Virus record (IMG/VR): IMGVR_UViG_2513237141_000003
Location: 1-64,000 of that record
DNA: 64,000 bases
From: a virus
Lineage: Duplodnaviria; Heunggongvirae; Uroviricota; Caudoviricetes
Reading direction: 5' to 3' (one strand)
Numbering within the stretch: position 1 is the first letter of the stretch; every line of letters begins with the position of its first letter. The notes beneath the pieces are model-generated. The model had not been told where the DNA came from and did no database searches. It saw only the letters and a program-made list of their open reading frames with translations. Shown piece after piece: positions 3,312 through 62,630 of this stretch. A program made the translations under genes and the position numbers.

Positions 3312-3413
3312 TTAGTGCCAGATCAGAATAGCCGCAACGATCGCCACGCCGGTCACGATCAAGTAGCGGATCAGAATCTGCATGTTGCGATGGTTGATCT
3401 CTTGATAGTTCAT
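3312..3413 (-). CDS. 33-aa hydrophobic micro-peptide (MNYQEINHRNMQILIRYLIVTGVAIVAAILIWH)
   Basis: ATG 8 nt after the conserved SD 10-mer; own hairpin cassette; one TM helix; not in ORF track (<60 aa). Confidence 0.35.
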   Translation of the reverse strand: MNYQEINHRNMQILIRYLIVTGVAIVAAILIWH

Positions 3414-3418
3414 GGACG

Positions 3419-3455
3419 GGTCTCCTTGTGGGAAGACCCCGCTGCGAACGGGGTC
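3419..3455 (-). promoter_or_regulatory. hairpin-SD cassette
   Basis: ggtctccttg + gaccccgCTGCGAAcggggtc; micro-peptide gene. Confidence 0.6.
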
Positions 3456-3464
3456 GGGGATTGT

Positions 3465-4661
3465 TTACTTGCTAGGCGCCACTGCTTTGCTCAGCCAGTC
3501 GCTGATGCTGGATGGCAGCCACCACAGCGAGACGCTAGAGGGCAGGGCGCCATTCCACTTGTTGGCGATGGTGCGAGTACCCTCGGCGGTCGCAAGTGCT
3601 TGCAGCGTCGCGGTATAGGGCGCCATGGTCTTGGCCACCTCGATATCCTGGGAGGCGACATAGCGACGGTTGACGGCGTCCTGCACGTCCTTGTTGAACT
3701 CGAACGTGTCGGCCCAACCGATGAAGTCGAGCGTGATGCCGACCGACGCCATGTATTCGGTCACCGCTTTCTTGATGTCCTCCATGATCTTAGCCGCTTG
3801 CTTGTTGTTATCGTCAAGCGAGCGCGCGGAGACCTGATCACACACAAGCGCCTGCACGCGGGACCGCACCGGGCCGTCCATTACTTCGGACAGCGACTTG
3901 CCCCGGTAAACAGACGTGAACACGATTTCCGGGTTATTGCGATCTCCGGCGGGCGGATTAACGCCAAACCGAAAGAGGAACTTCGGCGCGTTCTCCTCAT
4001 AGACCGAGGCGCCGATCGCCACACCCACCGTGACGTCAAGGCCTTCGGAAGACTGGCACGGGAAGGATTGATCGCCGGCGGTGGAGCCGCGGTGAGGCGA
4101 CTTGACCCATTCGCGCGAGACCGGCGTACGGTCGACGACGATCAGGCGTCCCGCAGGAACATAGTAGTTCGACCATGCGCCCGAATTGGGCAGCTTGGTG
4201 TGCGGGATCTCGAAGCGCTTGGCAGCGATCTTGTGCTCGTTGAGATACTGTTCGGAGCCGAACGATGCCTGCGACGACTTGTTGTCGCCGACATCGGGTA
4301 TGAAGAACGCCGATTCGTTCGGGAGGATGAAGTAGTTCTCCGTATAGTCGGACTGGCTGTAATAGGCGGACGCGGGCTGCGGGACGCCCGCCAGCAAGAG
4401 CACGATCAGACTGGCGAACAGCGCGCGCAGCGGCTTCAGCCAGATCAGGAACAGCCCTGCCACGACGGCGATGCCGATCAGAAACATTGCGCCGTTGTAG
4501 GCGCGGAAGGCGCCTTGGGTCGCCAGATATGACAGGTCACTGGCCTCGAACTGTTTACCGGCGATCTGTCCGAGCGCGAGCGTCGCCGGAGTATTGAATA
4601 AGAATGATGCAAGCGCCGCGCCAGCCAAGAGGGCGAGCGTCAGGAAGATGCGGAACTTCAT
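3465..4661 (-). CDS. SPFH/band-7-like membrane protein
   Basis: 398 aa; two N-terminal TM helices; SPFH-like core; cassette upstream. Confidence 0.5.
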   Translation of the reverse strand: MKFRIFLTLALLAGAALASFLFNTPATLALGQIAGKQFEASDLSYLATQGAFRAYNGAMFLIGIAVVAGLFLIWLKPLRALFASLIVLLLAGVPQPASAYYSQSDYTENYFILPNESAFFIPDVGDNKSSQASFGSEQYLNEHKIAAKRFEIPHTKLPNSGAWSNYYVPAGRLIVVDRTPVSREWVKSPHRGSTAGDQSFPCQSSEGLDVTVGVAIGASVYEENAPKFLFRFGVNPPAGDRNNPEIVFTSVYRGKSLSEVMDGPVRSRVQALVCDQVSARSLDDNNKQAAKIMEDIKKAVTEYMASVGITLDFIGWADTFEFNKDVQDAVNRRYVASQDIEVAKTMAPYTATLQALATAEGTRTIANKWNGALPSSVSLWWLPSSISDWLSKAVAPSK

Positions 4662-4668
4662 GGGATGA

Positions 4669-4704
4669 GGTCTCCTTGTGGATAATGCCGCTGCGAACGG
4701 CGGT
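4669..4704 (-). promoter_or_regulatory. hairpin-SD cassette
   Basis: gccgCTGCGAAcggc; SPFH gene. Confidence 0.6.
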
Positions 4705-4880
4705 TAAGAAGCTTGTTGACGACCCTCGCGGCGGGCCTGCCAGATGATGGCTGCAATGATGCCAACGTTGAGAGCGTGCATGCTGAGGCTGGGCCATGAC
4801 GGGAACGCCGAGAAAGCCGTCATGACAACCGATCCGATCCCGAGCCAGGTCGAAGGCCTTGTATGGATATCAAAGTTCAT
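4704..4880 (-). CDS. 58-aa membrane protein
   Basis: MNFDIHTRPSTWLGIGSVVMTAF...; hydrophobic; intergenic position between SPFH and SBP genes. Confidence 0.35.
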   Translation of the reverse strand: MNFDIHTRPSTWLGIGSVVMTAFSAFPSWPSLSMHALNVGIIAAIIWQARREGRQQAS

Positions 4881-4982
4881 GGTCGCCCCTTGAATTTGTT
4901 GGGAGGCTTGCGGCGCCTCCCGTGCCGTTTACGCGACGGAACGCAGGTTGGTCGCCTCGCGCGAGAGGTGACGCATGGGGGA

Positions 4983-5864
4983 TTACTGAGGCTGAGCGAG
5001 CTTAGCGATCTCAGGCCTTGCCGCCTGGAAGGACCGAAGCAGGCCGTCGTAGGCGCTGTCGTTGGCATTGATCCAGTTGGTGTTGGCGACAAAGATCGCG
5101 TCCACCTGGATCGTGCCGATGGCCTTGGTGCCGTAGACGGTCCCCGAGGGCTGGATTCGCGGGTAGGTGCCAGCCGGGATCTCTCCATAGCTGTAGACGT
5201 ACTGGCCACGCGCATCCTTGGCGACCGTAGTCATGTCGCGGTCGTCGGTCCCGACCAGCACGACGTTGTCGCCGGCATTCGAGGCGTCGTTCTTCATGAA
5301 CGAGCTGTTGAGTGCCGCGATCACGAGGGCGCACTGGACCTGCGTCCCATCTGCAACGGCCTGTACGGCGCGGATGCCGGAACGGATGTCCGTGTTGATC
5401 TGGCCATAACGCTTCTTGTCGGCCAGGACGAACGCGTCCCATGTGGTGTGCGCGCCGGAGCCCTCGGGGCCGATCGCGACCGTCATGTCCTTGGTCAGGT
5501 TGACCATGCGGCCGAGATCAAGCTTGCGGTTGCAGATCATGTGCGCCTGCTCCTTGTAGAGCACTCCGGCGCGCTCGATCGCCGCGATCGCCTTGGCGTT
5601 GCGGTTCGAATAGACGAGCAGGGCGTCCGACTGCACAAAGGCTCCGTCACAGTCGCCGTTCGTCACCTTGTCGAGGTTGTCCAGCGAGCCCTTGGTCTCG
5701 ATCACATCGACCTGAACGCTGGTCGATTTTGACTTCAACATGTAGCCAGCCTTGTAATAGTTCAGCTGGCTGTTGCCGGTGCAGAGCTTGAAGCTGGCCG
5801 CTTCGGCAGAGCTTGCCGTTGCGATCAGCGCGAGCGCTGCGAGGATCAGGTAAGGCGTCTTCAT
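4983..5864 (-). CDS. secreted periplasmic substrate-binding-like protein (TAXI/PhnD-like fold suspected)
   Basis: 293 aa; signal peptide (ALALIATASSAEA); cassette upstream. Confidence 0.5.
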   Translation of the reverse strand: MKTPYLILAALALIATASSAEAASFKLCTGNSQLNYYKAGYMLKSKSTSVQVDVIETKGSLDNLDKVTNGDCDGAFVQSDALLVYSNRNAKAIAAIERAGVLYKEQAHMICNRKLDLGRMVNLTKDMTVAIGPEGSGAHTTWDAFVLADKKRYGQINTDIRSGIRAVQAVADGTQVQCALVIAALNSSFMKNDASNAGDNVVLVGTDDRDMTTVAKDARGQYVYSYGEIPAGTYPRIQPSGTVYGTKAIGTIQVDAIFVANTNWINANDSAYDGLLRSFQAARPEIAKLAQPQ

Positions 5865-5866
5865 GC

Positions 5867-5895
5867 GGTCTCCTTGTTGCCTCTCGCGAAGAGGG
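5867..5895 (-). promoter_or_regulatory. hairpin-SD cassette (loop TCGCGAA variant)
   Basis: SBP gene. Confidence 0.5.
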
Positions 5896-5909
5896 CGGTT
5901 GGTGGTGGT

Positions 5910-6152
5910 TTAAGAGCTGCTAGAGTTGTTCGCGCTGACGATCTTCGGGACGAACACATCCTTGAGGATGCTGACGACGACGAAGATCGCGACGCAGTCG
6001 AAGAAGCCGGGGTGGCGATAGACGTCCGGCAGCCAATAGGCGTAGGTCTCGCCGATGCCAAAGACCGTCCACAGCAGCCAGAACGGAACGGCAAGGCAGA
6101 AGGCGAAAAAGATGGCCAGCAGCCAGCCGACGAGCGGGATCTTGTTCAACAC
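5910..6152 (-). CDS. ~80-aa membrane protein
   Basis: GTG start after variant cassette; two predicted TM helices (WLLAIFFAFCLAVPFWLLWTVFGI; VAIFVVVSIL). Confidence 0.4.
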   Translation of the reverse strand: MLNKIPLVGWLLAIFFAFCLAVPFWLLWTVFGIGETYAYWLPDVYRHPGFFDCVAIFVVVSILKDVFVPKIVSANNSSSS

Positions 6153-6703
6153 GGCACGAGGTCTCCTTGTGATGCGTCGCGAGGCGCAGGCGACGGAGGT
6201 GGCGCGATCTGTTTCAAAAACTCTGGCCAGATCACCTGCCAGAACCCGACGCATTGCGGGCTAGGTCGGTTTCGGATGACTTCATCGAAATCGTGACGAT
6301 AGGCGTGGCAGATGGGGCGAGAGTCGTAGACGTCCTCAACAAACAATTCGACGCTCTGCCGATTTTCGATGCGCTCCACATCATCCCACGCGTCTCGCGC
6401 TTCGACCTTGTCGACCGCGCCGTCGCGTCGGCGCTCCTTTATGTAGTCCTTCATGCCCTTGATGGTGGCGTGGAAATCGAACTCCATGTAGTCGCGACGT
6501 CCGATGGTCTTGCCCATGAAGTAGCCGAACTCGATGTCGGACAAGAACTCCTTCAGCGTCGCCGTGCCGATGTGCGACCAGCAATACGCATAGGTGCCGA
6601 ACGAGGTGTAGGCCGAGAACACACCCGTCTCCTCGTCGAGATAGATGAAGGCCCATTCGAGCTTGTGCGGGCCTGCGCCGCGGACGATGTAGCGATCAAC
6701 CAT
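6146..6703 (-). CDS. hypothetical protein
   Basis: start MVDRYIV; TAATG stop/start overlap with the upstream HNH gene. Confidence 0.55.
   Translation of the reverse strand: MVDRYIVRGAGPHKLEWAFIYLDEETGVFSAYTSFGTYAYCWSHIGTATLKEFLSDIEFGYFMGKTIGRRDYMEFDFHATIKGMKDYIKERRRDGAVDKVEARDAWDDVERIENRQSVELFVEDVYDSRPICHAYRHDFDEVIRNRPSPQCVGFWQVIWPEFLKQIAPPPSPAPRDASQGDLVPC
6160..6188 (-). promoter_or_regulatory. SD 10-mer + variant hairpin
   Basis: cgtcgc-gaggcgcag-gcgacg. Confidence 0.4.
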
Positions 6704-7113
6704 TAGAAGCCTTTCCACTTTTCAACAGGCGTTGACGCTCGACGCTGACCCGGAGCCTTCTCAAACCCCTTGCTCTGGATCTTCTTGGTCTTGCGTTTGA
6801 GGCCGTAGCTCGCCTTGAGCACGTTGTCGGCCTTGGTCATGATCGCGTTGTCGACCTTATCCTTGGTCTTCTTGCAGTTGCGGCAGCGGACCTGGCAGTT
6901 CTCGGCCGTGGGATCGCCGCCAAGGCCGTCCGGGTCCATGTGCTCATAGAAGATGTTGCCGGGCCGCAGCTCGGTGCCGCAGCCCTCGCATTGAGGCACG
7001 CCGGGGATGTTCTCGACGCCTTTGACGCGACAGCCCAGGCAGCAGCGGCGGAACGCCGCCTTGCGGACGCTCTGCGGAAACTCGGTCCGCTCGTCGCCGC
7101 GGAGGCTGGTCAC
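6703..7113 (-). CDS. HNH endonuclease
   Basis: CxxC...CxxC zinc knuckles plus H-N-N motif (EHMDPDG...ENCQVRCRNCKK). Confidence 0.7.
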   Translation of the reverse strand: MTSLRGDERTEFPQSVRKAAFRRCCLGCRVKGVENIPGVPQCEGCGTELRPGNIFYEHMDPDGLGGDPTAENCQVRCRNCKKTKDKVDNAIMTKADNVLKASYGLKRKTKKIQSKGFEKAPGQRRASTPVEKWKGF

Positions 7114-7415
7114 TGCCGGACCTCCGCGACCTTGCAGCCACCCGCCACGAAGGCGATGAAGCCGCCCTGATAGCGATACATCCCCATGTCGCGCGCGCGT
7201 TTGAAGGCGGCGTACTTAGCTGCCGACGGCGTCGCCGCCTGCACCACGCAAGAGGTGCTCGCAGACTCGACCGTGTAGAGCCGAACCTGCAGCGAGAGCT
7301 GCTTCGATCGCTTGCGTGGGGCCTTTGGGCGAGGGGAGGGGGTGTCCGGCGTCTCGCTCACCGGAGCCGAGACCTCGGGCAGCTGCATGAGCTCCATCTG
7401 CTTGGCGTCAACCAT
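7110..7415 (-). CDS. hypothetical protein
   Basis: ORF; ATGGTTGA overlap coupling with the upstream gene. Confidence 0.5.
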   Translation of the reverse strand: MVDAKQMELMQLPEVSAPVSETPDTPSPRPKAPRKRSKQLSLQVRLYTVESASTSCVVQAATPSAAKYAAFKRARDMGMYRYQGGFIAFVAGGCKVAEVRQ

Positions 7416-7809
7416 TGTCGACTTCCTTGAAGACGACGCCGTTTTGCGTGCCCCAGGCCTCGATAAAGGCCAGAAGTTCATTCATGTCGGAGGTTTCCAT
7501 CCGCGACGAACGTCCCTCGTACGGCAGGAAGGTCGAGCCATCGAGTGATGGCATCATGTCAACCTCTTGCCCGCAAGCGTGCATGCAGAGAAGCTTCCAC
7601 TGCTCGGGCGCGTAGAAGCGCTCGTTGCCGTTCATGTCGATGTGCGGTTTCTGTTTGGCGATCTCGCCCAGCATGGCCCACATCTTGCGCCGTTGTTTCT
7701 CCGAGGCGAGGTCGACGCGCATCTCGACCAGCGTGCCTGGTGCCGCCCGGTCGATCATGGTGTGTACGAAGGCGCGGTCATCGTCGTTGGTGATGAGGAT
7801 GCCGGTCAT
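7408..7809 (-). CDS. ninB: NinB-family recombination mediator
   Basis: alignable with lambda NinB (..QRRKMWAMLGEIAKQ...W..EQWKLLCMHA....SRM...E..ELLAFIEAWGTQNGV). Confidence 0.75.
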   Translation of the reverse strand: MTGILITNDDDRAFVHTMIDRAAPGTLVEMRVDLASEKQRRKMWAMLGEIAKQKPHIDMNGNERFYAPEQWKLLCMHACGQEVDMMPSLDGSTFLPYEGRSSRMETSDMNELLAFIEAWGTQNGVVFKEVDNG

Positions 7810-16106: not shown

Positions 16107-16157
16107 GATTTCATGCAGCCGTTTTGAAATTGGTCTTGGGGAAGGTGGGGGATTGCA

Positions 16158-19410: not shown

Positions 19411-19416
19411 AGACTA

Positions 19417-19875: not shown

Positions 19876-19878
19876 CAT

Positions 19879-32747: not shown

Positions 32748-32840
32748 TTAGAGCAGGCCGAGGGCTACAGCGAAACCGATCGCGATACCGATCAGAAGAA
32801 ACACGGCATCGCGCTCGATGGAGGCGGGTTTCAGGTGCAT
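32748..32840 (-). CDS. 30-aa hydrophobic micro-peptide (MHLKPASIERDAVFLLIGIAIGFAVALGLL)
   Basis: GGAG SD 6 nt upstream; single TM helix. Confidence 0.35.
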   Translation of the reverse strand: MHLKPASIERDAVFLLIGIAIGFAVALGLL

Positions 32841-34607: not shown

Positions 34608-34709
34608 TCAAAACAAGAGCCAGAACAGCAGCGCGACGAGGACGCCGATGACGCCGATGATAATCAGCAGCGCGTAAAGCGGCGCGCTATCCGACATGCG
34701 ATAGTTCAT
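34608..34709 (-). CDS. 33-aa hydrophobic micro-peptide (MNYRMSDSAPLYALLIIIGVIGVLVALLFWLLF)
   Basis: own cassette; same MNY start as the 3312-3413 peptide. Confidence 0.4.
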   Translation of the reverse strand: MNYRMSDSAPLYALLIIIGVIGVLVALLFWLLF

Positions 34710-34716: not shown

Positions 34717-34746
34717 GGTCTCCTTGTGATAGGGCCTGCGAAGCCC
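34717..34746 (-). promoter_or_regulatory. hairpin-SD cassette
   Basis: gggcCTGCGAAgccc; micro-peptide gene. Confidence 0.6.
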
Positions 34747-43839: not shown

Positions 43840-44190
43840 TTACTCGTAATGCGGACGCGTCTCGGGGTAGTGCTTCGGCGAGTGGCCGTTGTGGACCTCG
43901 GCATAGTATTTGCCGGTCGAGAGCACGCTGCCGATATCGCGGCGGCCGACATTGACGGTTTCGTCGAGCAGCGCCTGCAGGCTGGCGCACCATGCGTCGG
44001 AGGATTTCTCGTCCGGCTTGACGGTGAGCAGGTATTCCGGCTCGATGCCGTCGAGCGCGTGGTCGACGCGATCGCCGCAGTTGTAGTACCAGCCACCTTC
44101 CTCGGGGCCGCCGTAGGCGCGATCGACCAGATAGATGGCGACGGTCCAGAACGGGGCCGGCGTCGGTGGGCTTTCGATTTCTTCGGTCAT
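43840..44190 (-). CDS. hypothetical protein
   Basis: GGGAGA SD inside the upstream micro-ORF. Confidence 0.5.
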   Translation of the reverse strand: MTEEIESPPTPAPFWTVAIYLVDRAYGGPEEGGWYYNCGDRVDHALDGIEPEYLLTVKPDEKSSDAWCASLQALLDETVNVGRRDIGSVLSTGKYYAEVHNGHSPKHYPETRPHYE

Positions 44191-44270
44191 TGCTGTCTCC
44201 CATAGTGCAGCGCGCAGAGCGCTGCGATCGAGATGAATGTCATGGTGAGGATGAAGGCGCCGGCGATCAT
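44187..44270 (-). CDS. 27-aa hydrophobic micro-peptide (MIAGAFILTMTFISIAALCALHYGRQQ)
   Basis: ATGA overlaps at both ends. Confidence 0.35.
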   Translation of the reverse strand: MIAGAFILTMTFISIAALCALHYGRQQ

Positions 44271-46152: not shown

Positions 46153-46221
46153 TCACTTCTTGCCGTTGCGGTAGGAAGCGAGTTCGAGCTTGCGGAGGAG
46201 GATGATGACTTTCTTGGACAT
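46153..46221 (-). CDS. 22-aa basic micro-peptide (MSKKVIILLRKLELASYRNGKK)
   Basis: dedicated cassette; its stop lies in the next gene's SD. Confidence 0.35.
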   Translation of the reverse strand: MSKKVIILLRKLELASYRNGKK

Positions 46222-46223: not shown

Positions 46224-46258
46224 TGGTCTCCTTGGGGTTGAACCGTCTGCGAAACGGT
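46224..46258 (-). promoter_or_regulatory. hairpin-SD cassette
   Basis: accgtCTGCGAAacggt; 22-aa peptide gene. Confidence 0.6.
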
Positions 46259-46328
46259 CGTGCATAAGCGCACGCTGGAGCGCCGCCATCAGGCGACGCT
46301 CGGACTTGCGCTCTTGGGTGTGGGGTAA

Positions 46329-51121: not shown

Positions 51122-51531
51122 TGGGCTCCTGGCCGCTTGACGAGCTGTCCCGGCTACGGATTGAAGTCGAGGCCTTACGCGATCGTGTCGCGCAGCTTGA
51201 GGGCATCATCGGCATCGGCGTCGACGAGCTTGGCCTGCTCAAGCGGGTGATCCCTGACATCACCGTCATGGAGAGCAAGATCCTCAACATGGTTCGCGCC
51301 CGCGGCGCGGTCCCGCGCGGGGTGCTCTATGACGCGCTGTATGCCGCGCGCCCTGACTGTGATCAGCCCGGTGGCAAGGGCATCGAGGTGGCCATGATGC
51401 GGGTCCGGCGCAAGATTGCGCCGCTCGGGCTCACCATCACGACCTACTGCGGCAGCGGCTACGTCATGGCCGAGGCCGACCGCAAGCGCCTTACCTCGAT
51501 GATGCAGGTTCCCCAAGAGGTCGCGGCATGA
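51121..51531 (+). CDS. winged-helix (OmpR/PhoB-type trans_reg_C-like) DNA-binding regulator with N-terminal coiled coil
   Basis: C-terminal ..ESKILNMVRARGAVPRGVLYDALY....VAMMRVRRKI pattern. Confidence 0.6.
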   Translation: MGSWPLDELSRLRIEVEALRDRVAQLEGIIGIGVDELGLLKRVIPDITVMESKILNMVRARGAVPRGVLYDALYAARPDCDQPGGKGIEVAMMRVRRKIAPLGLTITTYCGSGYVMAEADRKRLTSMMQVPQEVAA

Positions 51532-51626
51532 GCACCGACCACATCATCGCCTATCTCGGCTTTGCGGCATTCATGACCGTGTGGGTCTGCGTCTCGCTGC
51601 CGCGGAAGTTTCGGCGGCGGCGCTGA
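51528..51626 (+). CDS. 32-aa TM micro-peptide (holin-like?)
   Basis: ATGA overlap; MSTDHIIAYLGFAAFMTVWVCVSLPRKFRRRR. Confidence 0.35.
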   Translation: MSTDHIIAYLGFAAFMTVWVCVSLPRKFRRRR

Positions 51627-51630: not shown

Positions 51631-51726
51631 ATGATCCCCGAGATGAACCAGTGGCGTCGCTACGACAACGTGCTGCTGCTGGCGATCCTTGTGGTCGAGA
51701 TTATCGACCTGTTCCACCGATGGTAA
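51631..51726 (+). CDS. 31-aa TM micro-peptide
   Basis: MIPEMNQWRRYDNVLLLAILVVEIIDLFHRW. Confidence 0.35.
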   Translation: MIPEMNQWRRYDNVLLLAILVVEIIDLFHRW

Positions 51727-51908
51727 GCAACGTCGTCAGCCTCGAAGCGGCCCGCAACAAGCGGGCGGCCAACGCGCTGGAGCGGCACTTCGGTGTGCCG
51801 GCCGAGGCCAACGGCGTCGGCGGCGACATGTGGTCCGAGCGCCACGGGCACGACCTCTACGCCTTTGCCAAGACGGGCGCGCCGCCCGAGCAGCCATTCT
51901 CGGATTGA
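51720..51908 (+). CDS. hypothetical protein
   Basis: ATGGTAA overlap. Confidence 0.35.
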   Translation: MVSNVVSLEAARNKRAANALERHFGVPAEANGVGGDMWSERHGHDLYAFAKTGAPPEQPFSD

Positions 51909-52677: not shown

Positions 52678-53013
52678 ATGCTTCCGACCGATACAGTTAT
52701 CATCGTCAACGACTCCTACGCCCGCCCCGAGCGGGCGCGCGCCTATCAGATCGACCGCTTCAAGGCGAAGCTCACCGGCGCCGAAGAACGCAAGGCCAAG
52801 GCCCAGGCCAAGCGCGATCGCAAGAACGAGAAGCGTGTTCGGGACGCCTATCGCTCCGAGATCGGCCAGCGCCTCGCCCGCGAACAGCTCGACGGCTCAT
52901 ACGTCCTGAGCACGAGCATCAGCTCCGTGGCGGTCGAGGCTTTCTTCCCGGAGACGCCGTTCAACAAGCTGCTGGCCGGCGTCGATTATGGCGCGGGCGA
53001 GGTGCTGGCATGA
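52678..53013 (+). CDS. hypothetical basic protein
   Basis: ORF after a 240-bp intergenic region. Confidence 0.5.
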   Translation: MLPTDTVIIVNDSYARPERARAYQIDRFKAKLTGAEERKAKAQAKRDRKNEKRVRDAYRSEIGQRLAREQLDGSYVLSTSISSVAVEAFFPETPFNKLLAGVDYGAGEVLA

Positions 53014-53117
53014 GCAGCGACAATGCGCTCGCCTGGCTCGGCATCGCCATGATTGCCGCCGGCTCCGCCATGCTGAGCTGGGCCCTCCACGATGTCCTCG
53101 TGAGGGCCTGCTCATGA
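53010..53117 (+). CDS. 35-aa TM micro-peptide
   Basis: ATGA overlap; MSSDNALAWLGIAMIAAGSAMLSWALHDVLVRACS. Confidence 0.35.
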   Translation: MSSDNALAWLGIAMIAAGSAMLSWALHDVLVRACS

Positions 53118-54151: not shown

Positions 54152-54345
54152 TCACCGCAGCCCAGTCCGCCAACCTCCACGTCGGCCAGACGGTGATCAC
54201 CCATCACCTGAGCCGCCCCGGCACCATCACCAAGATCTTCACGCCGGCCGATGGCCAGCGTGTCATCGAGCTCGATGTCCCCGCGAGCGAGGGCCGCACC
54301 TTCAAGGTCTGGGTCGGGCCTACGCAGATCGACGAGGTACTGTGA
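54148..54345 (+). CDS. hypothetical protein
   Basis: ATGA overlap. Confidence 0.45.
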   Translation: MITAAQSANLHVGQTVITHHLSRPGTITKIFTPADGQRVIELDVPASEGRTFKVWVGPTQIDEVL

Positions 54346-54479
54346 TGAACCTCGGTCCCGTCAACAGGCATTGGATCTCTGTCGCGCTGGCGCTCGCCGC
54401 CGGCGCCATCGCCTGCTCCGGCCATGAAGGCTGGGGCTGGTGCCTGCTCATGATCGTTGTGATCGAGGAGGCCTGGTGA
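54345..54479 (+). CDS. 44-aa TM micro-peptide
   Basis: overlapping start. Confidence 0.35.
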   Translation: MNLGPVNRHWISVALALAAGAIACSGHEGWGWCLLMIVVIEEAW

Positions 54480-56606: not shown

Positions 56607-56682
56607 TCTGGACGTAGCGCAGTTGGTAGCGTACCGCACTTGGAATGCGGGGGTCGTCGGTTCGAGCCCGACCGTCCAGACC
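56607..56682 (+). tRNA. tRNA-Pro (TGG)
   Basis: cloverleaf; acceptor ctggacg/cgtccag; anticodon loop cuUGGaa; CCA encoded. Confidence 0.8.
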
Positions 56683-56684
56683 AA

Positions 56685-56772
56685 TCCGTGAGTGCCGGAG
56701 TGGTCAATCGGGGCGGGCTGTAAACCCGCCGGCTTTCGGGCCTTCGCTAGTTCAAATCTAGCCTCACGGACC
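56685..56772 (+). tRNA. tRNA-Tyr (GTA), long variable arm
   Basis: acceptor ccgtgag/ctcacgg; loop cuGUAaa; CCA. Confidence 0.8.
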
Positions 56773-56775
56773 AAT

Positions 56776-56851
56776 TACCCGCTTGGTCCAGTGGTCTAAG
56801 ACGTCGGACTTTGACTCCGAAGACAGTCGTTCAAATCGACTAGCGGGTGCC
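56776..56851 (+). tRNA. tRNA-Gln (TTG)
   Basis: acceptor acccgct/agcgggt; loop cuUUGac; CCA. Confidence 0.75.
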
Positions 56852-56894
56852 AAGAGATTGACCAGCCGCAGGTTGATCGGCTATCAGGCTGGGC

Positions 56895-57401
56895 ATGACC
56901 CTTGCCAAGGCTTCCCTCGTTGTAGCAGTCCTCATCGCCGCCGCGTCCAGCGCAGCCGGCGAGGGGCAGCCTATTACGGAGGCCATGAAGCCGGTCATGG
57001 CCGCAGCCCGCATCTTTGCGCTCGAAAACCACCTCCACGGCGACATCGCTGTTGCCGATGAGGACGAGGGCCACATCGGCCGCAGTTTCGAGGTCAACCA
57101 CGCCCCGGGCGAAGCCTGCACCTTCACGATGCGGCGCCGCGGCGGGCCAGTGATCGAGACGATCAGCTTCGATCGTCTGTCCGGTGAATATCACGCCTGG
57201 CCGCAGCACGGTTATGCGCGGCTCGCCATTTCAGGCCAGCCTGGCGCTCAGTGCGAGGTCAGCGGCGGCGTCAAGCGCTGCTCGCCCAACCTGGATATGC
57301 TGCTGATGGTCGAAGGCTCGCCGAGCGAGCTCGACCTGGCGCGGCGCGCGCTGGATTACATCTTCGAGAACGTGTGCCGTCCGGCACAACTGCCATTCTG
57401 A
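56895..57401 (+). CDS. secreted hypothetical protein inside the tRNA island
   Basis: signal peptide; 168 aa. Confidence 0.5.
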   Translation: MTLAKASLVVAVLIAAASSAAGEGQPITEAMKPVMAAARIFALENHLHGDIAVADEDEGHIGRSFEVNHAPGEACTFTMRRRGGPVIETISFDRLSGEYHAWPQHGYARLAISGQPGAQCEVSGGVKRCSPNLDMLLMVEGSPSELDLARRALDYIFENVCRPAQLPF

Positions 57402-57493
57402 AAGCTCAAGGTCACACCATGTCGTCGTTTAGTCACTCATCACATATCGCCGGAAGGGTGACGCGGTAACACGACCGCCGCCCTTCCTGTTTG

Positions 57494-57579
57494 CGGAGGG
57501 TGGCGCCCATGGTGGGCAAACAGTCTCGAAAACTGCGCCCCGGTCTCCCGGTGATGGTTCGAATCCTTCACCCTCCGCC
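57494..57579 (+). tRNA. tRNA-Ser (CGA), long variable arm
   Basis: acceptor ggagggt/accctcc, G73, CCA; loop cuCGAaa; coordinates +/-2. Confidence 0.7.
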
Positions 57580-57580
57580 A

Positions 57581-57656
57581 CGCCGAGGTAGCTCAGCTGG
57601 TAGAGCGGCGCGTTGAAAGCGCGCGCGTCGGAGGTTCGAACCCTTCCCTCGGCACC
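57581..57656 (+). tRNA. tRNA-Phe (GAA)
   Basis: acceptor gccgagg/cctcggc; loop uuGAAag; CCA. Confidence 0.8.
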
Positions 57657-57670
57657 AACTCTTCCCAAGG

Positions 57671-57746
57671 TGCCGGCTTAGTTCAATTGGTTAGAACGCT
57701 CGATTGTGGCTCGGGAAATCGCGGTTCGAGCCCGCGGGCTGGTACC
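57671..57746 (+). tRNA. tRNA-His (GTG), alpha-proteobacterial type (no G-1, A73)
   Basis: D/anticodon/T arms canonical; loop uuGUGgc; acceptor has three G-U pairs. Confidence 0.6.
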
Positions 57747-57785
57747 AACTTTCGCGGACTCGAACGGTGTGCTAAGGCGCACGCC

Positions 57786-57977
57786 ATGACCTTCGAGGAT
57801 GAGCTCACCGCACTGCTCATGAAGTATCTCGGTCCAGACGCGCGCCCGCGAGACTGGTACCGGATCGGCGGGGAACTGGAAACCGCGTTGCACTGGGTGG
57901 ACTCGCGGTCGTCGGCTAGGTTTACTCCAGAGGAGTTTGACGCCGATCTTGAAGCCGACGAGGCGGAGAGGGAGTGA
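57786..57977 (+). CDS. hypothetical acidic protein (64 aa) between tRNAs
   Basis: ORF MTFEDELTALL... Confidence 0.4.
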   Translation: MTFEDELTALLMKYLGPDARPRDWYRIGGELETALHWVDSRSSARFTPEEFDADLEADEAERE

Positions 57978-57982
57978 ATTTC

Positions 57983-58056
57983 GACGATGTGGCCGAGTGA
58001 TGAGGCAGACGGCTGCAACCCGTCTCACGTTGGTTCGATTCCATCCATCGTCTCCA
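57983..58056 (+). tRNA. tRNA-Cys (GCA)
   Basis: acceptor gacgatg/catcgtc; loop cuGCAac; CCA. Confidence 0.75.
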
Positions 58057-58254
58057 ATTCCGAGACCTCGGTAACTCCATCCCGCCAGATGATCACTGGC
58101 GCGGCCTGGCTCGAGGTGCGGATGCTCGCAAGGTAGACGGCGTCGCGGCTTGCGGCCTGCGGCGCCCGTGTCCATGGCTTGTCCCGTCCCGCCTTGCGTT
58201 TAGGTCTCTGCGTCGTCCGCTAGCGGCGCTCCGGCTAACGGGAAAAAGTTTCGT

Positions 58255-58330
58255 TGGGTTGTAGCTCAGTCGGTAGAGCAGGCGGCTGTTAACCGCCGCG
58301 TCGCTGGTTCGAATCCAGCCTTCCCAGCCA
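58255..58330 (+). tRNA. tRNA-Asn (GTT) with two U-U mismatches in the acceptor stem
   Basis: D, anticodon (cuGUUaa) and T arms canonical; CCA present; pairs 5-68 and 6-67 mismatched. Confidence 0.55.
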
Positions 58331-58331
58331 A

Positions 58332-58406
58332 GCCGGGGTAGCTCAGCGGTAGAGCAGCGACTTTGTAAGTCGACGGTCGTCGGTTCAAATCCCTCTCTCG
58401 GCACCA
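58332..58406 (+). tRNA. tRNA-Thr (TGT)-like, non-canonical T-stem (possible pseudo-tRNA)
   Basis: acceptor gccgggg/tctcggc (2 G-U); loop uuUGUaa; T-stem has two central mismatches. Confidence 0.45.
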
Positions 58407-58444
58407 ATTTCCTTCCCCATCTTCCCCAACAGACGAGTCCCCAC

Positions 58445-59749
58445 ATGCCTGATATCGGCGAGCGCAAGCTCGCGACGATCCGTCGCGTCTCGAAGATCGA
58501 CCCCATCGAGGGTGCTGACCGCATCGTCAAGGCCACCATCGACGGCTGGGAGCTGGTCACCCAGAAGACCAACTACCAGGTCGGCGATCTCTGCCTCTAC
58601 TTCGAGATCGACAGTTTCTTGCCGGTGCGGCCAGAGTTCGAGTTCCTGCGCGACAAGTGCTTCAAGTCGGTTGCAGGCCTTGGTGACGGCTTCCGCATCA
58701 AGACCATGAAGATGAAGGGCGTGGTGTCGCAGGGGCTTAGCCTGCCGCTGTCGGACTTCTTCGATAAGGAAGATGACGGCCGCTACTTCTACATCGCCCC
58801 GGAGACCAAATGGGAGCGTGAACGCCTCGAACGTCGTGAATGGGTCGAGCCGACCCGGGTCTTCCTTGAGGAGGGCATGGACGTCACCGACTACCTCGGC
58901 GTCAAGAAGTATGAAAAGCCGGCCGCCGGTAATGGCGGCGGGTCGAAGCTTGGCCCGACGCATGCCCGCGGCGGCTTCCCCGACTTCCTGCAAAAGACCG
59001 ATCAGGAGCGCATCCAGAACTGTCTGAGCGGTGTGCTGAAATGGATCTATTACGGAGCACCCGTCGTCACCGAGGTGTTTAATCCCGTAGTCATCGAAAA
59101 CCTGAACCTGGGTCGGGTCGAGAACAGCGCGGAGTCTTACTACTTCAAGTCCGGCGACCAGTGGTTCCACAAGGCTGCGGTCCGCAACGATGATGAGACC
59201 ATCGCCAAGCGCCAGCAGTTCGAAGTGACGCTGAAGCTCGATGGATCGTCGATGACGGTCTATCACAACGACTACAGCTACGGCGTCTGCTCGCGAAACT
59301 TCGACCTCAAGCGGGACGAGGCGTCGCTATTCTGGCAGCAGGCCGCCGATGGGATCATCGCGGCGTTGGTTGTCGTCGGCAAGAACGTGGCGCTCCAAGG
59401 CGAGCTGATGGGCCCCGGCATTCAGGGTAACCGCGAAGGATTCGCCACTAACCAGTTCTTCGCCTTCGACGTCTATGACATCGATCAGTCGAGGTACATG
59501 ACGCCGGATGAGCGGTTCGGCTTCCTGCGCAATCTGCAGGGCATTGGCTGCGGCATCCAGCACGCGCCGGCACTCGCTCATGACTACGTGCTCACCGAGA
59601 CGACAACGGTGAATGATCTGCTCAAGATCGCGGATCGGGCCAGCTTCAACAACCCGATCGCTGAAGGTGTCGTGTTCAAGTCCCTCGTCGCCGGCGGACC
59701 GACCTTCAAGGTGATCAACAACAAGTTCCTGTTGGCTGAGAAGGACTGA
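58445..59749 (+). CDS. ATP-dependent RNA ligase (Rnl-like nucleotidyltransferase) with N-terminal OB-like domain
   Basis: KxDG motif I (VTLKLDGSS); covalent nucleotidyltransferase layout; embedded in the tRNA island. Confidence 0.75.
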   Translation: MPDIGERKLATIRRVSKIDPIEGADRIVKATIDGWELVTQKTNYQVGDLCLYFEIDSFLPVRPEFEFLRDKCFKSVAGLGDGFRIKTMKMKGVVSQGLSLPLSDFFDKEDDGRYFYIAPETKWERERLERREWVEPTRVFLEEGMDVTDYLGVKKYEKPAAGNGGGSKLGPTHARGGFPDFLQKTDQERIQNCLSGVLKWIYYGAPVVTEVFNPVVIENLNLGRVENSAESYYFKSGDQWFHKAAVRNDDETIAKRQQFEVTLKLDGSSMTVYHNDYSYGVCSRNFDLKRDEASLFWQQAADGIIAALVVVGKNVALQGELMGPGIQGNREGFATNQFFAFDVYDIDQSRYMTPDERFGFLRNLQGIGCGIQHAPALAHDYVLTETTTVNDLLKIADRASFNNPIAEGVVFKSLVAGGPTFKVINNKFLLAEKD

Positions 59750-59761
59750 ATACACTTTCAT

Positions 59762-59836
59762 TGCAGGGTGGAGCAGCGGTAGCTCGGCGCGCTCATAACG
59801 CGTAGGTCGCCGGTTCGATCCCGGCCTCTGCAACCA
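59762..59836 (+). tRNA. tRNA-Met/Ile2 (CAT), elongator-type
   Basis: acceptor tgcaggg/ctctgca, with 1-72 paired; loop cuCAUaa; CCA. Confidence 0.75.
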
Positions 59837-60549: not shown

Positions 60550-60756
60550 ATGACCGCTGCTAAGCACTCTGTAGCCATGGCCGAAGGCGCTCTCGTGCCC
60601 GGCGACGTCGTTCGCCTCAAGGGTCAGCTGGTCAAGATGACCATTGACTATCTGTGCCAGGGCGACAACGCGCGATGCTCATGCGTATGGTTTGTCGACA
60701 ACCATCTGCAACGCGAAACCTTCTCGCTCCAGTCTCTTGCGAGGGTGCGGGAATGA
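60550..60756 (+). CDS. hypothetical protein
   Basis: AAGGAGG SD. Confidence 0.45.
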   Translation: MTAAKHSVAMAEGALVPGDVVRLKGQLVKMTIDYLCQGDNARCSCVWFVDNHLQRETFSLQSLARVRE

Positions 60757-60932
60757 CCATCCCCGCCGACAGCGTCGTCTTCTATCGCGACGAAAAGAAC
60801 CGGATGATCCTGTTCGAGATCAACGGCCGCGTCGTCGCGCGCATGCCCATCACCGAATGGTCGTTTGCGATTGCAAACCCAGTCACGGTGAATGCGCCTG
60901 CCTACGATTTCAGCCGCGGCGAACCGGCATGA
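60753..60932 (+). CDS. hypothetical protein
   Basis: ATGA overlap. Confidence 0.4.
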   Translation: MTIPADSVVFYRDEKNRMILFEINGRVVARMPITEWSFAIANPVTVNAPAYDFSRGEPA

Positions 60933-61144
60933 AGGTTTCGATCTTCTGCGGCTCCAGCCTGGTCGCGTTAGCTGTAGTGGCGGCATTTCTCTCGTTCGGT
61001 GCCGGCAAGTATCGCGCCCACCAACTTGCCGTCAGCGAGTGGTGCCGGTCCCAAGGCTACTACATGGCGGTCGTAGGCGAAGAGGGCGGTGACTATTGCA
61101 TCGTTCACGACCGGCTGATGGTGCCGAAGGACATCGGCCCATGA
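60929..61144 (+). CDS. small membrane/secreted protein
   Basis: N-terminal hydrophobic segment. Confidence 0.45.
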   Translation: MKVSIFCGSSLVALAVVAAFLSFGAGKYRAHQLAVSEWCRSQGYYMAVVGEEGGDYCIVHDRLMVPKDIGP

Positions 61145-61728
61145 AGTGGAACGACATCAAGATCGACGGCAATCCGGCCTCCTTCCTCAACTACGAGAAC
61201 GCGCGCCTCTACGTCTGCGAGCGCTCAGGCCGGGTCGAGGCCTGGGTCGACGGTGACAAGGTCGGCAACTTCGAGACCATCGACGAGGCGAAGGCGCGGG
61301 CCTGCCTCAAGGTCGGCATTCCGGTGGAGATCCCAAGGTCGGTCGCCAAGCCCAAGAAGCAGCTCGCGCCGCCGCCCAAGGTCAAGTGCAAGGCGAAGGT
61401 CGAGACCGTCAGGGATACCCCCAAGGGGCGCCGCTTCGGCGACCCGATCGTGAAGCGCTTCGAGCACGAGAAGAAGCTCAAGCGCTTTCCCATAGCCAAC
61501 ATGAGCGAGCCGCCGGCGCTGGTCGTGGCAGTCGCGCCCGAGCCGATGCCAGCTCCTGAGCCCATCTATCGCATGGCTGGTTACTGCGCTTGCGGCGTGC
61601 GGCTCGGTCGCATGGGCAAGTGCCCTGCGCTCTGCACGCCGGTGGCCGAGGAGCCTCCGCAATATCGCGGGCCCATGGTGGTTGGCCGCTCTCATATCGG
61701 CCGCATAGGAGCGCCGGTGTCATGGTGA
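61141..61728 (+). CDS. hypothetical protein
   Basis: ATGA overlap. Confidence 0.5.
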   Translation: MKWNDIKIDGNPASFLNYENARLYVCERSGRVEAWVDGDKVGNFETIDEAKARACLKVGIPVEIPRSVAKPKKQLAPPPKVKCKAKVETVRDTPKGRRFGDPIVKRFEHEKKLKRFPIANMSEPPALVVAVAPEPMPAPEPIYRMAGYCACGVRLGRMGKCPALCTPVAEEPPQYRGPMVVGRSHIGRIGAPVSW

Positions 61729-62081
61729 AGCTGTTGGGAGCGAGCGCGCCTGAGACCTCCGCCGTGCAGCGCCACTCGCCCAGCGAGATCGACGCCGCCA
61801 AGCAACTCTTGCAGCGCCACGGCTACGTCGTGGTCGAGCGCGACCGCGTCAAGGTCGTCGAGGCCGACGTGATCGTCGGCGAGTTAGATCTGAAATATGC
61901 CAGTAATCCTTGGCAGCTCATCGAATACGTTCGGCGCTGCCTCCTCGACAAGCTCTTCGACGGCATCGCCGATATGGGCGGCTGCCTGAAAGAGACGGAG
62001 AGTAATGTCACTCACCCGCACCGAGGTCGTCGCCTGGTGTCTGAAGTGACCCTGATCGTGCCGGAGCAGGCCAAGAGCTGA
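61722..62081 (+). CDS. hypothetical protein
   Basis: overlapping start. Confidence 0.45.
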   Translation: MVKLLGASAPETSAVQRHSPSEIDAAKQLLQRHGYVVVERDRVKVVEADVIVGELDLKYASNPWQLIEYVRRCLLDKLFDGIADMGGCLKETESNVTHPHRGRRLVSEVTLIVPEQAKS

Positions 62082-62290
62082 TGACCGAGGCGCTCACTGC
62101 CGACGAGGCTCTGATCGCCGACATCATGCGCGCCGAGCTGCACGATCGCTTCCACGGCAAGAGGGTCACTCGGCAAGAGGTCGCCGAGGTGGTGGCAGGT
62201 CTCCTCGCAATGGACCCCGAAGACATCGACGTCGCCTACGTGGCCCAGACTGGCCAGTTCTTCATCGACATCAGGACGCATTCCCCATGA
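62081..62290 (+). CDS. hypothetical protein
   Basis: ATGA overlap. Confidence 0.45.
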   Translation: MTEALTADEALIADIMRAELHDRFHGKRVTRQEVAEVVAGLLAMDPEDIDVAYVAQTGQFFIDIRTHSP

Positions 62291-62487
62291 GCACCCCCTC
62301 CGTCACCGATGCGCGCACTGCGCTCGCATCGGCTATTGCCACGACTGTTGCCTGTCGCATCGACAACGGCTCCGCAGCCACACTGACGCCCGACCAGGTC
62401 GCAGAGCTGACCGGCGCGATCGAGGGCATGATCGATGCAGTGGTCTCGGCCAAGCTGCTGGCCATCAGCGCGGCGGCCGCGTCATGA
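62287..62487 (+). CDS. hypothetical protein
   Basis: ATGA overlap. Confidence 0.45.
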   Translation: MSTPSVTDARTALASAIATTVACRIDNGSAATLTPDQVAELTGAIEGMIDAVVSAKLLAISAAAAS

Positions 62488-62630
62488 TGTATGTCGTCTA
62501 CGGCCTGGCCCTTTGGAAGGGCATCGACATCCTTTTCGGCACCTACCGCCTCATCAAGGACATGTTCTTCACCGACCGCGGCCCCAGCATCTTTGACGGC
62601 CCGCCGATCGGCGGCTCCGGCATCGGCTAG
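62484..62630 (+). CDS. 48-aa membrane micro-protein
   Basis: ATGATG start; MMYVVYGLALWKGIDILFG... Confidence 0.35.
   Translation: MMYVVYGLALWKGIDILFGTYRLIKDMFFTDRGPSIFDGPPIGGSGIG

Follow-up and report, generated by a model that had tools for sequence, protein, structure and literature searches.

Ten micro-ORFs in a Bradyrhizobium phage-like element: probably real but ordinary small accessory genes

Micro-ORFs in the gene arrays of the element

The window (the whole 64,000-nt stretch of DNA analysed here) comes from Bradyrhizobium sp. Tv2a-2 and is phage-like, with ~122 tightly packed genes, and its phage context includes a primase-helicase, a RecE-like exonuclease, an RNA ligase, an AAA-ATPase, and 10 tRNAs. 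It most likely forms part of a large phage-like element of roughly 100-125 kb, whose non-structural regions are most likely dense arrays of small accessory genes. All ten micro-ORFs proposed in a preliminary description are present, each with an ATG start and a stop, five on either strand (Table 1), and a gene tiling of the window (122 genes) includes every one of them. Their neighbours are mostly ORFans too, among them a 111-aa gene with no relative among 5.8 billion proteins.

Table 1. Micro-ORFs of the window and the cassettes that precede three of them
Feature	Position	Strand	Description
c3312	3312..3413	-	33-aa MNYQEINHRNMQILIRYLIVTGVAIVAAILIWH, one C-terminal TM-like helix, cassette-driven
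c3312 cassette	3422..3455	-	gaccccg-TTCGCAG-cggggtc, then ttcccac, then AAGGAG
c32748	32748..32840	-	30-aa MHLKPASIERDAVFLLIGIAIGFAVALGLL, single-pass TM peptide
c34608	34608..34709	-	33-aa MNYRMSDSAPLYALLIIIGVIGVLVALLFWLLF, one TM-like helix, cassette-driven
c34608 cassette	34720..34746	-	gggc-TTCGCAG-gccc, then tatcac, then AAGGAG
c44187	44187..44270	-	27-aa MIAGAFILTMTFISIAALCALHYGRQQ, TM-like
c46153	46153..46221	-	22-aa basic MSKKVIILLRKLELASYRNGKK, net charge +6, not hydrophobic, cassette-driven
c46153 cassette	46228..46259	-	gaccgt-TTCGCAG-acggtt, then caacccc, then AAGGAG
c51528	51528..51626	+	32-aa MSTDHIIAYLGFAAFMTVWVCVSLPRKFRRRR, TM helix and basic tail
c51631	51631..51726	+	31-aa MIPEMNQWRRYDNVLLLAILVVEIIDLFHRW, TM-like, no SD
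c53010	53010..53117	+	35-aa MSSDNALAWLGIAMIAAGSAMLSWALHDVLVRACS, TM-like, ATGA overlap at both ends
c54345	54345..54479	+	44-aa MNLGPVNRHWISVALALAAGAIACSGHEGWGWCLLMIVVIEEAW, predicted two-helix hairpin
c62484	62484..62630	+	48-aa MMYVVYGLALWKGIDILFGTYRLIKDMFFTDRGPSIFDGPPIGGSGIG, ATGA overlap upstream

These ORFs had been described as unannotated, which holds for c44187 and c46153 only, whereas the other eight are already called by a public gene caller (c3312 and c34608 included, the former without a WP accession) and two have RefSeq accessions (WP_283807250.1 for c54345; WP_156927848.1 for c62484). The public gene call leaves the 76-nt slot of c44187 empty; this peptide is absent from a 15-billion-protein collection, and c46153 is likewise absent from the public protein collection. 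Both ORFs missed by the caller are conserved ones. Pfam and PHROG searches of the ten ORFs gave no significant match pointing to function.

Start contexts had previously been called excellent. A cassette (AAGGAGACC) lies 6-10 nt 5' of the ATG in c3312 (at 8 nt), c34608, and c46153, and GGAG, GAGG, or AGAGG stands at -7 to -13 in five more, but c51631 and c62484 lack a Shine-Dalgarno sequence, the latter overlapping the stop of the gene before it. Among the seven ORFs without a cassette, six share 1-10 nt with the gene before them and c51631 begins 4 nt past the stop of c51528, which suggests translational coupling. For example, c44187 is, as first described, ATGA-coupled at both ends (to 44267-44461 and 43840-44190), c51528 shares an ATGA with a 136-aa gene upstream, c51631 runs 7 nt into the gene that follows (51720-51908), and c32748 has a 10-nt overlap with the stop of the gene upstream and terminates shortly ahead of the next gene's cassette. 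Among the cassette-driven ORFs, c3312 is flanked by an SPFH-domain gene (3465-4661) and a radical-SAM-like gene (2320-3264), and c34608 is the first cistron before a 268-aa gene (33788-34594; GTG start, own AGGAGG).

Coding signal, conservation, and turnover

ORF openness alone is not beyond chance: in shuffled gap sequences, an equally long ATG-ORF arose in 11-52% of trials for eight ORFs, and the figure was lower only for c54345 (2.7%) and c62484 (0.6%). Period-3 coding composition did exceed chance: for no ORF was the real score reached by more than 7 of 2000 open, composition-matched shuffles (7 for c53010; 1 for c51528, at a score of 4.4; 0 for c3312, c51631, and c34608, at 8.8, 9.8, and 11.7, respectively), and all ten scored above all 127 out-of-frame control ORFs. 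The best score of the ten, 18.7, belonged to c62484 (GC3 0.92). All rival extensions of neighbouring genes scored negatively, including the long start of the gene downstream of c53010 (-16). Hydrophobicity, expressed as a 17-residue Kyte-Doolittle mean (KD17), was at least 1.8 in 8/10 ORFs (2.42 in c3312 and 3.25 in c34608) and at least 1.6 in 2.6% of 116 control ORFs. An antisense frame may also score well in DNA rich in GC, which was seen at c32748.

We then compared the window with three distant IMG/VR relatives (R1, R2, and R3). Conservation and dN/dS, the checks suggested earlier, showed cross-genome conservation in four ORFs. Homologs of c32748 occupy the matching slot of all three relatives (motif [ED]RD..F[LF][LM]IG..[IV]G; dN/dS 0.29-0.45, dS above 1), and the match beats 300/300 shuffles. 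c54345 has one homolog, in R2 (L229 15440-15586; 69% identical, dN/dS 0.32). c46153 was found in two relatives, with a paralog, but its dN/dS (0.55-1.1) is ambiguous. The one match to c44187, again in R2 (L142 745-834, MPVTTIAAIVLAFIVISALCAHRYGRPHP), is weak, and possibly a homolog: its 25 bits exceed all 300 shuffles, but its dN/dS of 1.6, on 27 codons, is not below 1.

Beyond these relatives, c54345 falls into a widespread phage-borne family of ~40-aa proteins that is uncharacterised and has no name or Pfam model. A search of 1.84 billion proteins gave ten cluster representatives (50% identity) at E<=1e-3, and a profile search at least 65 clusters. Members are 37-48 aa long, carry the motif SGHDGWGWC with a near-invariant loop (H27-D28-G29-W30-G31-W32) between two hydrophobic helices, and include the hypothetical protein AAFG13_06675 of Bradyrhizobium sp. 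B124; homologs were located in a P22-like prophage of Bradyrhizobium and in a phage-like array of small genes. An AlphaFold model of c54345 places the helices at 8-25 and 30-43 (pLDDT 86), and the match to phrog_14810 is borderline (E=0.0075).

The remaining six (c3312, c34608, c51528, c51631, c53010, and c62484) have no detectable homolog in R1, R2, or R3, and the evidence for them is intrinsic throughout. The segment 2273-7424, which includes c3312, is missing from R2 and R3, c3312 is also missing from a metagenome relative (L316), and the R1 slot syntenic to c34608 has no small ORF. Paralogy of c3312 and c34608, thought likely at first from their shared MNY start, is weak: their 7 identities give p ~0.003 under full shuffling and ~0.03 once the polar-head/TM-tail architecture is kept, and they are one of 28 pairs. 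A match to c51528 in unrelated contigs was judged spurious.

c62484 has no homolog among 5.8 billion proteins. It abuts a PAPS-reductase-like gene (62631-63362) directly and in the same frame, so that it could be read as an N-terminal extension of that gene reached by read-through of the in-frame TAG (62628-62630). We regard this as extremely improbable, as in R1, R2, and R3 the homologs of the 243-aa product begin at a matching [MV][AS]GLD behind unrelated upstream genes, with no c62484 in the slot, the 10 phage tRNAs include no CUA anticodon, and a shared frame would arise by chance in one case out of three.

More generally, some of the ORFs, especially the six strain-specific ones, might be incidental or newly arisen frames, or leftovers of mosaic recombination between gene modules, translated or not, with no selection on the peptide. 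The lack of homologs for these six, the frequency of chance open frames in shuffled gaps, and the ORFan surroundings all fit such an origin, as do the slots in the relatives, where unrelated small genes point to rapid turnover. However, every ORF has a significant period-3 coding signal, hydrophobic helices are far commoner than in control ORFs, two of the six (c3312 and c34608) have a full cassette at canonical spacing, and removing the ORFs would leave 100-190-nt holes in otherwise gap-free arrays, which makes this explanation rather unlikely. The original claim of micro-peptide genes is most likely right, and we judge the ten ORFs probably real because of their coding signal, their hydrophobicity, their tiling, cassettes, or coupling, and the conservation of four, not because of openness. 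Read from sequence, they are likely to be genuine short protein-coding genes of the small accessory gene arrays of the Bradyrhizobium element, and probably real but ordinary ones.

A hairpin-plus-SD cassette and a conserved 22-mer

The cassette and the conserved 22-mer are more interesting by-products than the micro-genes overall. Each cassette consists of a hairpin with an invariant loop (UUCGCAG), a G-poor spacer, CAAGGAGACCA, and 4-10 nt before the start codon. The pattern matches 28 times in the window against 0.08 expected, and all 27 window cassettes stand 6-10 nt before a start codon, marking 3 micro-ORFs and 24 longer genes; four genomes together hold 100 instances with 71 different stems. 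We infer that c3312, c34608, and c46153 are translated behind this repeated intercistronic cassette, while the other seven ORFs appear threaded into the arrays and may be translated by coupling.

As the preliminary description had it, c46153 encodes a K/R-rich 22-mer with its own cassette, and both are kept in R1 (MSRKQIIALIRKLELQRYRNGK) and R2 (MSYQQKLELLRKLALQQYRHGK), the alignment having one in-frame codon indel. In R1 there is also a paralog of 53 aa behind its own cassette. The product of c46153 would be a basic, amphipathic 22-mer heading a transcription unit, and might work through the peptide itself or through its translation as a leader. For the three cassette micro-ORFs, a leader role would mean control of the expression or stability of the downstream cistron, with the peptide itself immaterial. 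Each is indeed the first cistron behind a cassette, followed by the next gene after 11 nt (c46153), 13 nt (c34608), or a second cassette (c3312); moreover, the dN/dS of c46153 together with its unusually low dS against R1 (0.20, compared to 0.45 in the neighbouring gene) points to nucleotide-level constraint, and a GC-rich hairpin 5' of it is conserved in the window and R2. However, each of the three genomes has a different gene 3' of the 22-mer, while peptide length, charge pattern, and an LRKLEL..YRNGK motif are kept, the R1 paralog carries the N-terminal motif inside a longer protein, and c3312 and c34608 have well-formed TM helices that a pure leader would not need. A leader role is an unlikely account of these ORFs.

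Possible roles and relation to known systems

Tiny, mostly membrane-embedded peptides are common in phages, and some phage-encoded single-pass peptides of <50 aa modulate host membrane proteins or mediate exclusion. For the protein-coding reading that we prefer, translation, membrane insertion, and function are inferred: eight products (27-44 aa), with one hydrophobic helix each and two in c54345, would insert into the host inner membrane. By analogy, they would most likely serve as small accessory factors that, in infection or lysogeny, bind membrane proteins of the host or the phage or perturb them. A reasonable generic guess would be the exclusion of superinfecting phages or the inhibition of membrane proteins of the host.

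A holin/antiholin pair or lysis module, suggested earlier for c51528 and c51631, found no backing in the genomic context and is very improbable. The two are adjacent single-TM peptides, and c51528 resembles many holins in its TM helix and its strongly basic C-terminus. However, they are half the usual size (to our knowledge, the smallest characterised holins are ~2x as large as these 31-32-aa peptides, which counts against the idea), a scan of 27 neighbouring window proteins found no endolysin, spanin, or other lysis family, and a winged-helix-like protein, ORFans, and a TM/His-rich protein surround the pair. Lysis genes would also be expected to be conserved, but the syntenic slots of R1, R2, and R3 hold unrelated genes.

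The ten ORFs have several traits in common with small phage and bacterial membrane proteins in general: they are 22-48 aa long, have one hydrophobic helix next to a short polar head or tail, lie in early or accessory arrays, are often omitted from annotation, and turn over rapidly between related phages. They differ from characterised members in having no sequence similarity to any of them and in being known here from sequence alone. c54345 shares length, loop, flanking helices, and phage or prophage context with the SGHDGWGWC family. Catalogues of small ORFs have been published (PMC11364881, PMC11188072).

The closest analogue of the cassette is the system of Start-Associated Sequences (SAS) and extended SAS (ESAS) of Cluster K mycobacteriophages, presumed, like the cassette, to have a part in translation initiation (PMC3203893). 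Both are asymmetric conserved repeats that include the ribosome-binding site, lie at a fixed short distance from start codons, and accompany some of the non-structural genes in a single orientation with respect to them, and the cassette shares with ESAS an inverted repeat on the upstream side (PMC3203893). The cassette, however, has a variable stem (71 variants) around an invariant 7-nt loop, while ESAS has conserved 17-bp arms around a variable spacer; the SD-containing motif is CAAGGAGACCA rather than the GGGATAGGAGCCC of SAS, the host phylum differs too, and the copy number, at 27 per 64 kb, is above that of SAS (PMC3203893).

Gene arrays of the window and their distant relatives

The window has a GC content of 62% and is identical to a public assembly contig over positions 42678-63013, and its proteins are on record from Bradyrhizobium sp. 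Tv2a-2 (380-kb contig). Its phage-like content consists of a primase-helicase, a RecE-like exonuclease, an RNA ligase, an AAA-ATPase (phrog_8638), a DHH phosphoesterase and a PAPS-reductase-like protein; ten tRNA genes flank the RNA ligase gene (see the table), and tRNAs were the only gathering-threshold matches to Rfam in the window. Neither near-identical phage DNA nor a close relative was found among deposited phage genomes (INPHARED). The best deposited-phage matches of the AAA-ATPase (42-43% identity over 94% of its length) were from Cluster O-type mycobacteriophages, e.g., Corndog and Catdawg, whose hosts are very distant. Scans of IMG/VR anchored on single proteins (the 268-, 111- and 398-aa neighbours of micro-ORFs) gave no matches, and the 111-aa protein is considered an ORFan because its homolog search returned itself alone.

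Three distant relatives were recovered by scanning IMG/VR with the motif of the start-site cassette described below, namely R1 (UViG_2695421015_000001, 125.5 kb), R2 (UViG_2908764845_000006, 112 kb) and R3 (UViG_2922401287_000005, 105 kb), and about 190 kb of relatives were assembled or fetched for comparison. Conserved genes of the window and these relatives had ~65-75% nucleotide identity, and the dS of the ATPase against them was ~0.7-0.8.

Period-3 Markov gene tiling placed ~122 genes in the 64 kb of the window, which makes this region an array of very small genes. Besides the ten micro-ORFs studied here, which are named by their start coordinates, three further ORFs of less than 50 aa were noted. 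At one locus, the public gene call holds a 241-aa gene opposite a plus-strand ORF with a TM helix and a His-rich tail; the latter has a homolog in R1 (10001-10672 of the R1 stretch L227), and thus the plus-strand ORF, and not the called gene, is probably real. This ORF and a second His-rich plus-strand ORF (starting at 19417) each carry an N-terminal signal or TM segment (HRRHARHRHSRHHH and HHHHRHHHRAYHH, respectively), and the second is cassette-driven although its coding score is negative.

Locations and comparative data of the micro-ORFs and associated features (window positions unless stated otherwise)
Feature	Location	Strand	Remarks
Micro-ORF 3312	3312-3413	minus	
Micro-ORF 32748	32748-32840	minus	homologs in R1, R2 and R3, same slot; dN/dS 0.29-0.45, dS >1
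Micro-ORF 34608	34608-34709	minus	
Micro-ORF 44187	44187-44270	minus	possible homolog in R2; dN/dS 1.6 on 27 codons
Micro-ORF 46153	46153-46221	minus	homologs in R1 and R2, 53-aa paralog in R1; dN/dS 0.55-1.1, ambiguous
Micro-ORF 51528	51528-51626	plus	
Micro-ORF 51631	51631-51726	plus	
Micro-ORF 53010	53010-53117	plus	
Micro-ORF 54345	54345-54479	plus	homolog in R2, 69% identical; dN/dS 0.32
Micro-ORF 62484	62484-62630	plus	
R1 paralog of 46153 (53 aa)	25893-26054 within assembled stretch 35128-68529 of IMGVR_UViG_2695421015_000001	minus	
Segment containing 3312	2273-7424		
SPFH/Band-7 membrane protein	3465-4661		within the segment containing 3312
NMT1-like protein	4983-5864		within the segment containing 3312
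Further ORF, 41 aa	8490-8615	minus	RefSeq WP_283807248.1; coding score 15; overlapped at both ends
Further ORF, 43 aa	27086-27217	minus	coding score 4.2
Further ORF, 48 aa	44458-44604	minus	in public gene call; weak coding score 0.6
His-rich ORF	19417-19836	plus	
AAA-ATPase	29277-30959	minus	phrog_8638
Called gene, 241 aa	51857-52582	minus	public gene call
TM/His-rich ORF	51914-52441	plus	
tRNA genes (n=10)	56608-59836		Pro, Tyr, Gln, Ser, Phe, His, Cys, Asn, Thr, Met
RNA ligase gene	58445-59749		
Cassette copies (n=24)	3273-47622	minus	
Cassette copies (n=3)	19384-20820	plus	

Coding evidence for the ten micro-ORFs

Annotation often overlooks the small peptides of phages, some of which control host takeover, exclusion or the timing of lysis. 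All ten ORFs listed in the preliminary description were present at the coordinates given there, five on each strand, with ATG starts and proper stops. Its term "unannotated" applied to 44187 (27 aa) and 46153 (22 aa) alone, the only two of the ten absent from a collection of 15 billion proteins; the 76-nt slot of 44187 is empty in the public gene call. The other eight had been called by a public gene caller, and 54345 and 62484 have RefSeq entries (WP_283807250.1 and WP_156927848.1, respectively). The favourable start contexts it reported were seen again, with a Shine-Dalgarno (SD)-type motif before eight ORFs (AAGGAGACC 6-10 nt upstream of the start in three; GGAG, GAGG or AGAGG at -7 to -13 in five). 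The two ORFs lacking an SD are 62484, which overlaps the stop of the preceding gene, and 51631, which starts 4 nt past the preceding stop. The coupling described for 44187 was also confirmed, as an ATGA overlap with each neighbour.

Openness of the reading frames was no better than chance in DNA this rich in GC, since an equally long ATG-ORF occurred in 11-52% of shuffled gap sequences for eight of the ten ORFs, and it was dropped as evidence for genes on this outcome. Coding composition, competing readings and hydrophobicity were each beyond chance. For each ORF, no more than 7 of 2000 shuffles, kept open and matched in composition, attained its period-3 coding score, and all ten scored above every one of 127 short out-of-frame control ORFs inside long genes. 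Where longer starts of neighbouring genes would cover a micro-ORF (53010, 54345, 44187 and 51631), the alternative frame scored strongly negative. The 17-residue Kyte-Doolittle mean (KD17) was at least 1.8 in eight ORFs, while only 2.6% of 116 control ORFs reached 1.6 or more. Removal of the ten ORFs would leave holes of 76-190 nt in gene arrays otherwise joined by overlaps of -1 to -8 nt. Scans of the ten peptides against Pfam and PHROG gave no significant match, the best PHROG matches being phrog_14810 for 54345 (E=0.0075) and phrog_27276 for 32748 (E=0.021).

Judged from sequence, the most likely reading of the ten ORFs is that they are genuine small accessory genes in a large phage-like element of Bradyrhizobium and that eight of them encode membrane peptides. 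Their translation would begin either at a dedicated cassette of hairpin and SD or through coupling inside the gene arrays. Micro-gene content of this kind is nothing unusual for a phage genome, and the findings leave current understanding unchanged; of greater interest, as by-products, are the cassette system, a conserved 22-codon gene invisible to gene callers, and an unnamed peptide family.

Conserved and strain-specific micro-ORFs

Support for the ten ORFs is comparative for four and intrinsic (sequence statistics) alone for six strain-specific ORFans. In the conservation and dN/dS comparison with R1-R3, homologs were found for 32748, 46153 and 54345 and possibly for 44187, with matches above all 300 shuffled-peptide controls, and none were found for 3312, 34608, 51528, 51631, 53010 and 62484. 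The homologs of 32748 have the motif [ED]RD..F[LF][LM]IG..[IV]G in common, and the substitution pattern clearly points to purifying selection on this peptide. The candidate R2 homolog of 44187 (29 aa) has ALCA..YGR in common with it, which weakly suggests conservation.

The product of 46153 is a basic, amphipathic 22-mer. In R1 and R2, too, it is encoded by an ORF of 22 codons that has a cassette of its own, with one in-frame codon indel, and the gene downstream differs among the window, R1 and R2. Since dS against R1 is low, a peptide function and a leader function are inseparable for this gene. The 53-aa paralog in R1 (MSRKQILKLIRQDELRRFREY...) also has its own cassette, and its first 18 nt are those of the R1 22-mer gene. 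Both the 22-aa gene and the 27-aa gene 44187 fall below the minimum length that standard gene callers accept, yet appear to be conserved in distant relatives.

Purifying selection is likewise clearly indicated by dN/dS for 54345. Among 1.84 billion representatives searched exhaustively, 10 families matched it at E<=1e-3, and a profile search gave at least 65 clusters, mostly of 37-48 aa and all "hypothetical", none of which had a Pfam domain; these searches tied 54345 to the family at E values of 1e-12 to 1e-17. Two family alignments (A1 and A2) have a near-invariant core, SGHDGWGWC, between two hydrophobic stretches. With its length in the range of ~37-48 aa and an HDGWGW loop between two hydrophobic helices, 54345 belongs to this family, and its AlphaFold model is a helical hairpin (helices 8-25 and 30-43, mean pLDDT 86). 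Bradyrhizobium sp. B124 carries a homolog in a P22-like prophage, and homology was also seen in a further array of tiny phage-like genes, where there is again a 4-nt overlap with the preceding gene. This family of ~40 aa is widespread, without name or assigned function.

In the relatives, the syntenic slots of the six ORFans hold unrelated genes or none. The relatives have their own unrelated hydrophobic ORFs of 38-50 aa in similar overlapping arrays (L227 11534-11650 and 16416-16568 in R1; 15989-16120 of the R2 stretch L229), so that micro-TM genes are a shared but fast-turning-over feature of the phage group. The segment containing 3312 is absent from R2 and R3, with ~670 nt in its place, and is therefore a variable accessory module; 3312 was also not found in a metagenome relative fragment (L316). 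As 3312 lies directly downstream of the SPFH/Band-7 membrane protein gene, one may speculate that this protein is a partner of its product. The Smith-Waterman score of 38 between 3312 and 34608, the MNY pair described earlier as likely paralogs, was reached by 15 of 5000 full shuffles (p ~0.003) and 154 of 5000 architecture-preserving shuffles (p ~0.03) with 28 pairs compared, and weakly suggests paralogy. The same score was found for 51528 and 53010, which share the N-terminal pattern MS[TS]D..A[YW]LG[FI]A.

A holin/antiholin role proposed for 51528 and 51631 was not supported by gene context or conservation. As a pair they have the TM domain and charged C-terminal tail of holins (51528 has a KD17 of 2.21 at residues 6-22 and a basic tail, PRKFRRRR, whereas in 51631 a TM-like stretch occurs without a basic tail), but lack the conserved position of holins in related phages: next to the homolog of the preceding 136-aa gene, R1, R2 and R3 all have unrelated genes in this slot. 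No endolysin, spanin or other lysis family came up when 27 window proteins, among them every larger neighbour at 48.9-64 kb, were scanned against Pfam and PHROG, and the neighbours of the pair are a winged-helix-like protein, ORFans and the TM/His-rich protein. Characterised holins are far longer than these peptides of 31-32 aa. A tblastn match of 51528 to three contigs of 48-50% GC was rejected, as the matching frame lacks a Met and the contigs are unrelated.

ORF 62484 (48 aa) shares its frame with the 243-aa PAPS-reductase-like gene that follows it (62484-63362 in all), with TAG alone between them, an arrangement that could be read as one gene. The relatives begin the 243-aa gene at the same residue, so the common frame is probably coincidence; no suppressor tRNA for the TAG is present, and 62484 is most likely a separate gene. 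It had no relative among 5.8 billion proteins.

A hairpin-plus-SD cassette at gene starts

Dedicated cassettes, attributed to several micro-ORFs in the preliminary description, were borne out for 3312, 34608 and 46153. The pattern TTCGCAG, 4-30 nt, AAGGAG occurred 28 times in the window compared to 0.08 expected. The 27 distinct copies have a 4-9-bp stem of variable sequence around an invariant 7-nt loop (TTCGCAG), followed by a C/A-rich, G-poor spacer and CAAGGAGACCA, with a start codon 4-10 nt on and on the same strand in every copy. They begin 24 ORFs of at least 67 aa and the three micro-ORFs, whose SD and ATG thus stand in the same geometry as those of 24 well-supported genes; the cassette is therefore a strong internal gene-start flag for these three, and could be used in this phage group for rescuing micro-genes at start sites.

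R1-R3 carry the same system, likewise co-oriented with the gene and at a short fixed distance from starts, which brings the total to 100 instances with 71 distinct stems. Varied stems on a fixed loop are the covariation that typifies hairpins read in the form of RNA or of single-stranded DNA. No Rfam family matched the cassette, and a pattern scan of GTDB species genomes gave chance matches only, single each except for one contig with two; among the matches listed in a metagenome-contig scan, most were noise and one was a useful relative fragment (L316). We consider it rather unlikely, if conceivable, that the cassette is a phage-specific post-transcriptional control system with the 46153 22-mer as a functional regulator peptide of the phage group. 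Mechanistically, the UUCGCAG loop on a free stem, with the G-poor spacer and CAAGGAGACCA, would then be recognised by a factor of its own that binds or processes RNA, and the cassette would set the translation of ~30 genes per genome, including conserved 46153.

The closest described analogue is the SAS/ESAS repeats of Cluster K mycobacteriophages (PMC3203893). Both are asymmetric, SD-containing motifs at a short fixed distance from the starts of a subset of genes, with which they are co-oriented. In the window, 27 of 27 cassettes stand 6-10 nt ahead of a start codon. However, the arms of the SAS/ESAS inverted repeats are conserved and their spacer is variable, whereas in the cassette the arms vary and the loop is invariant, which makes it an analogue of SAS/ESAS rather than a member.
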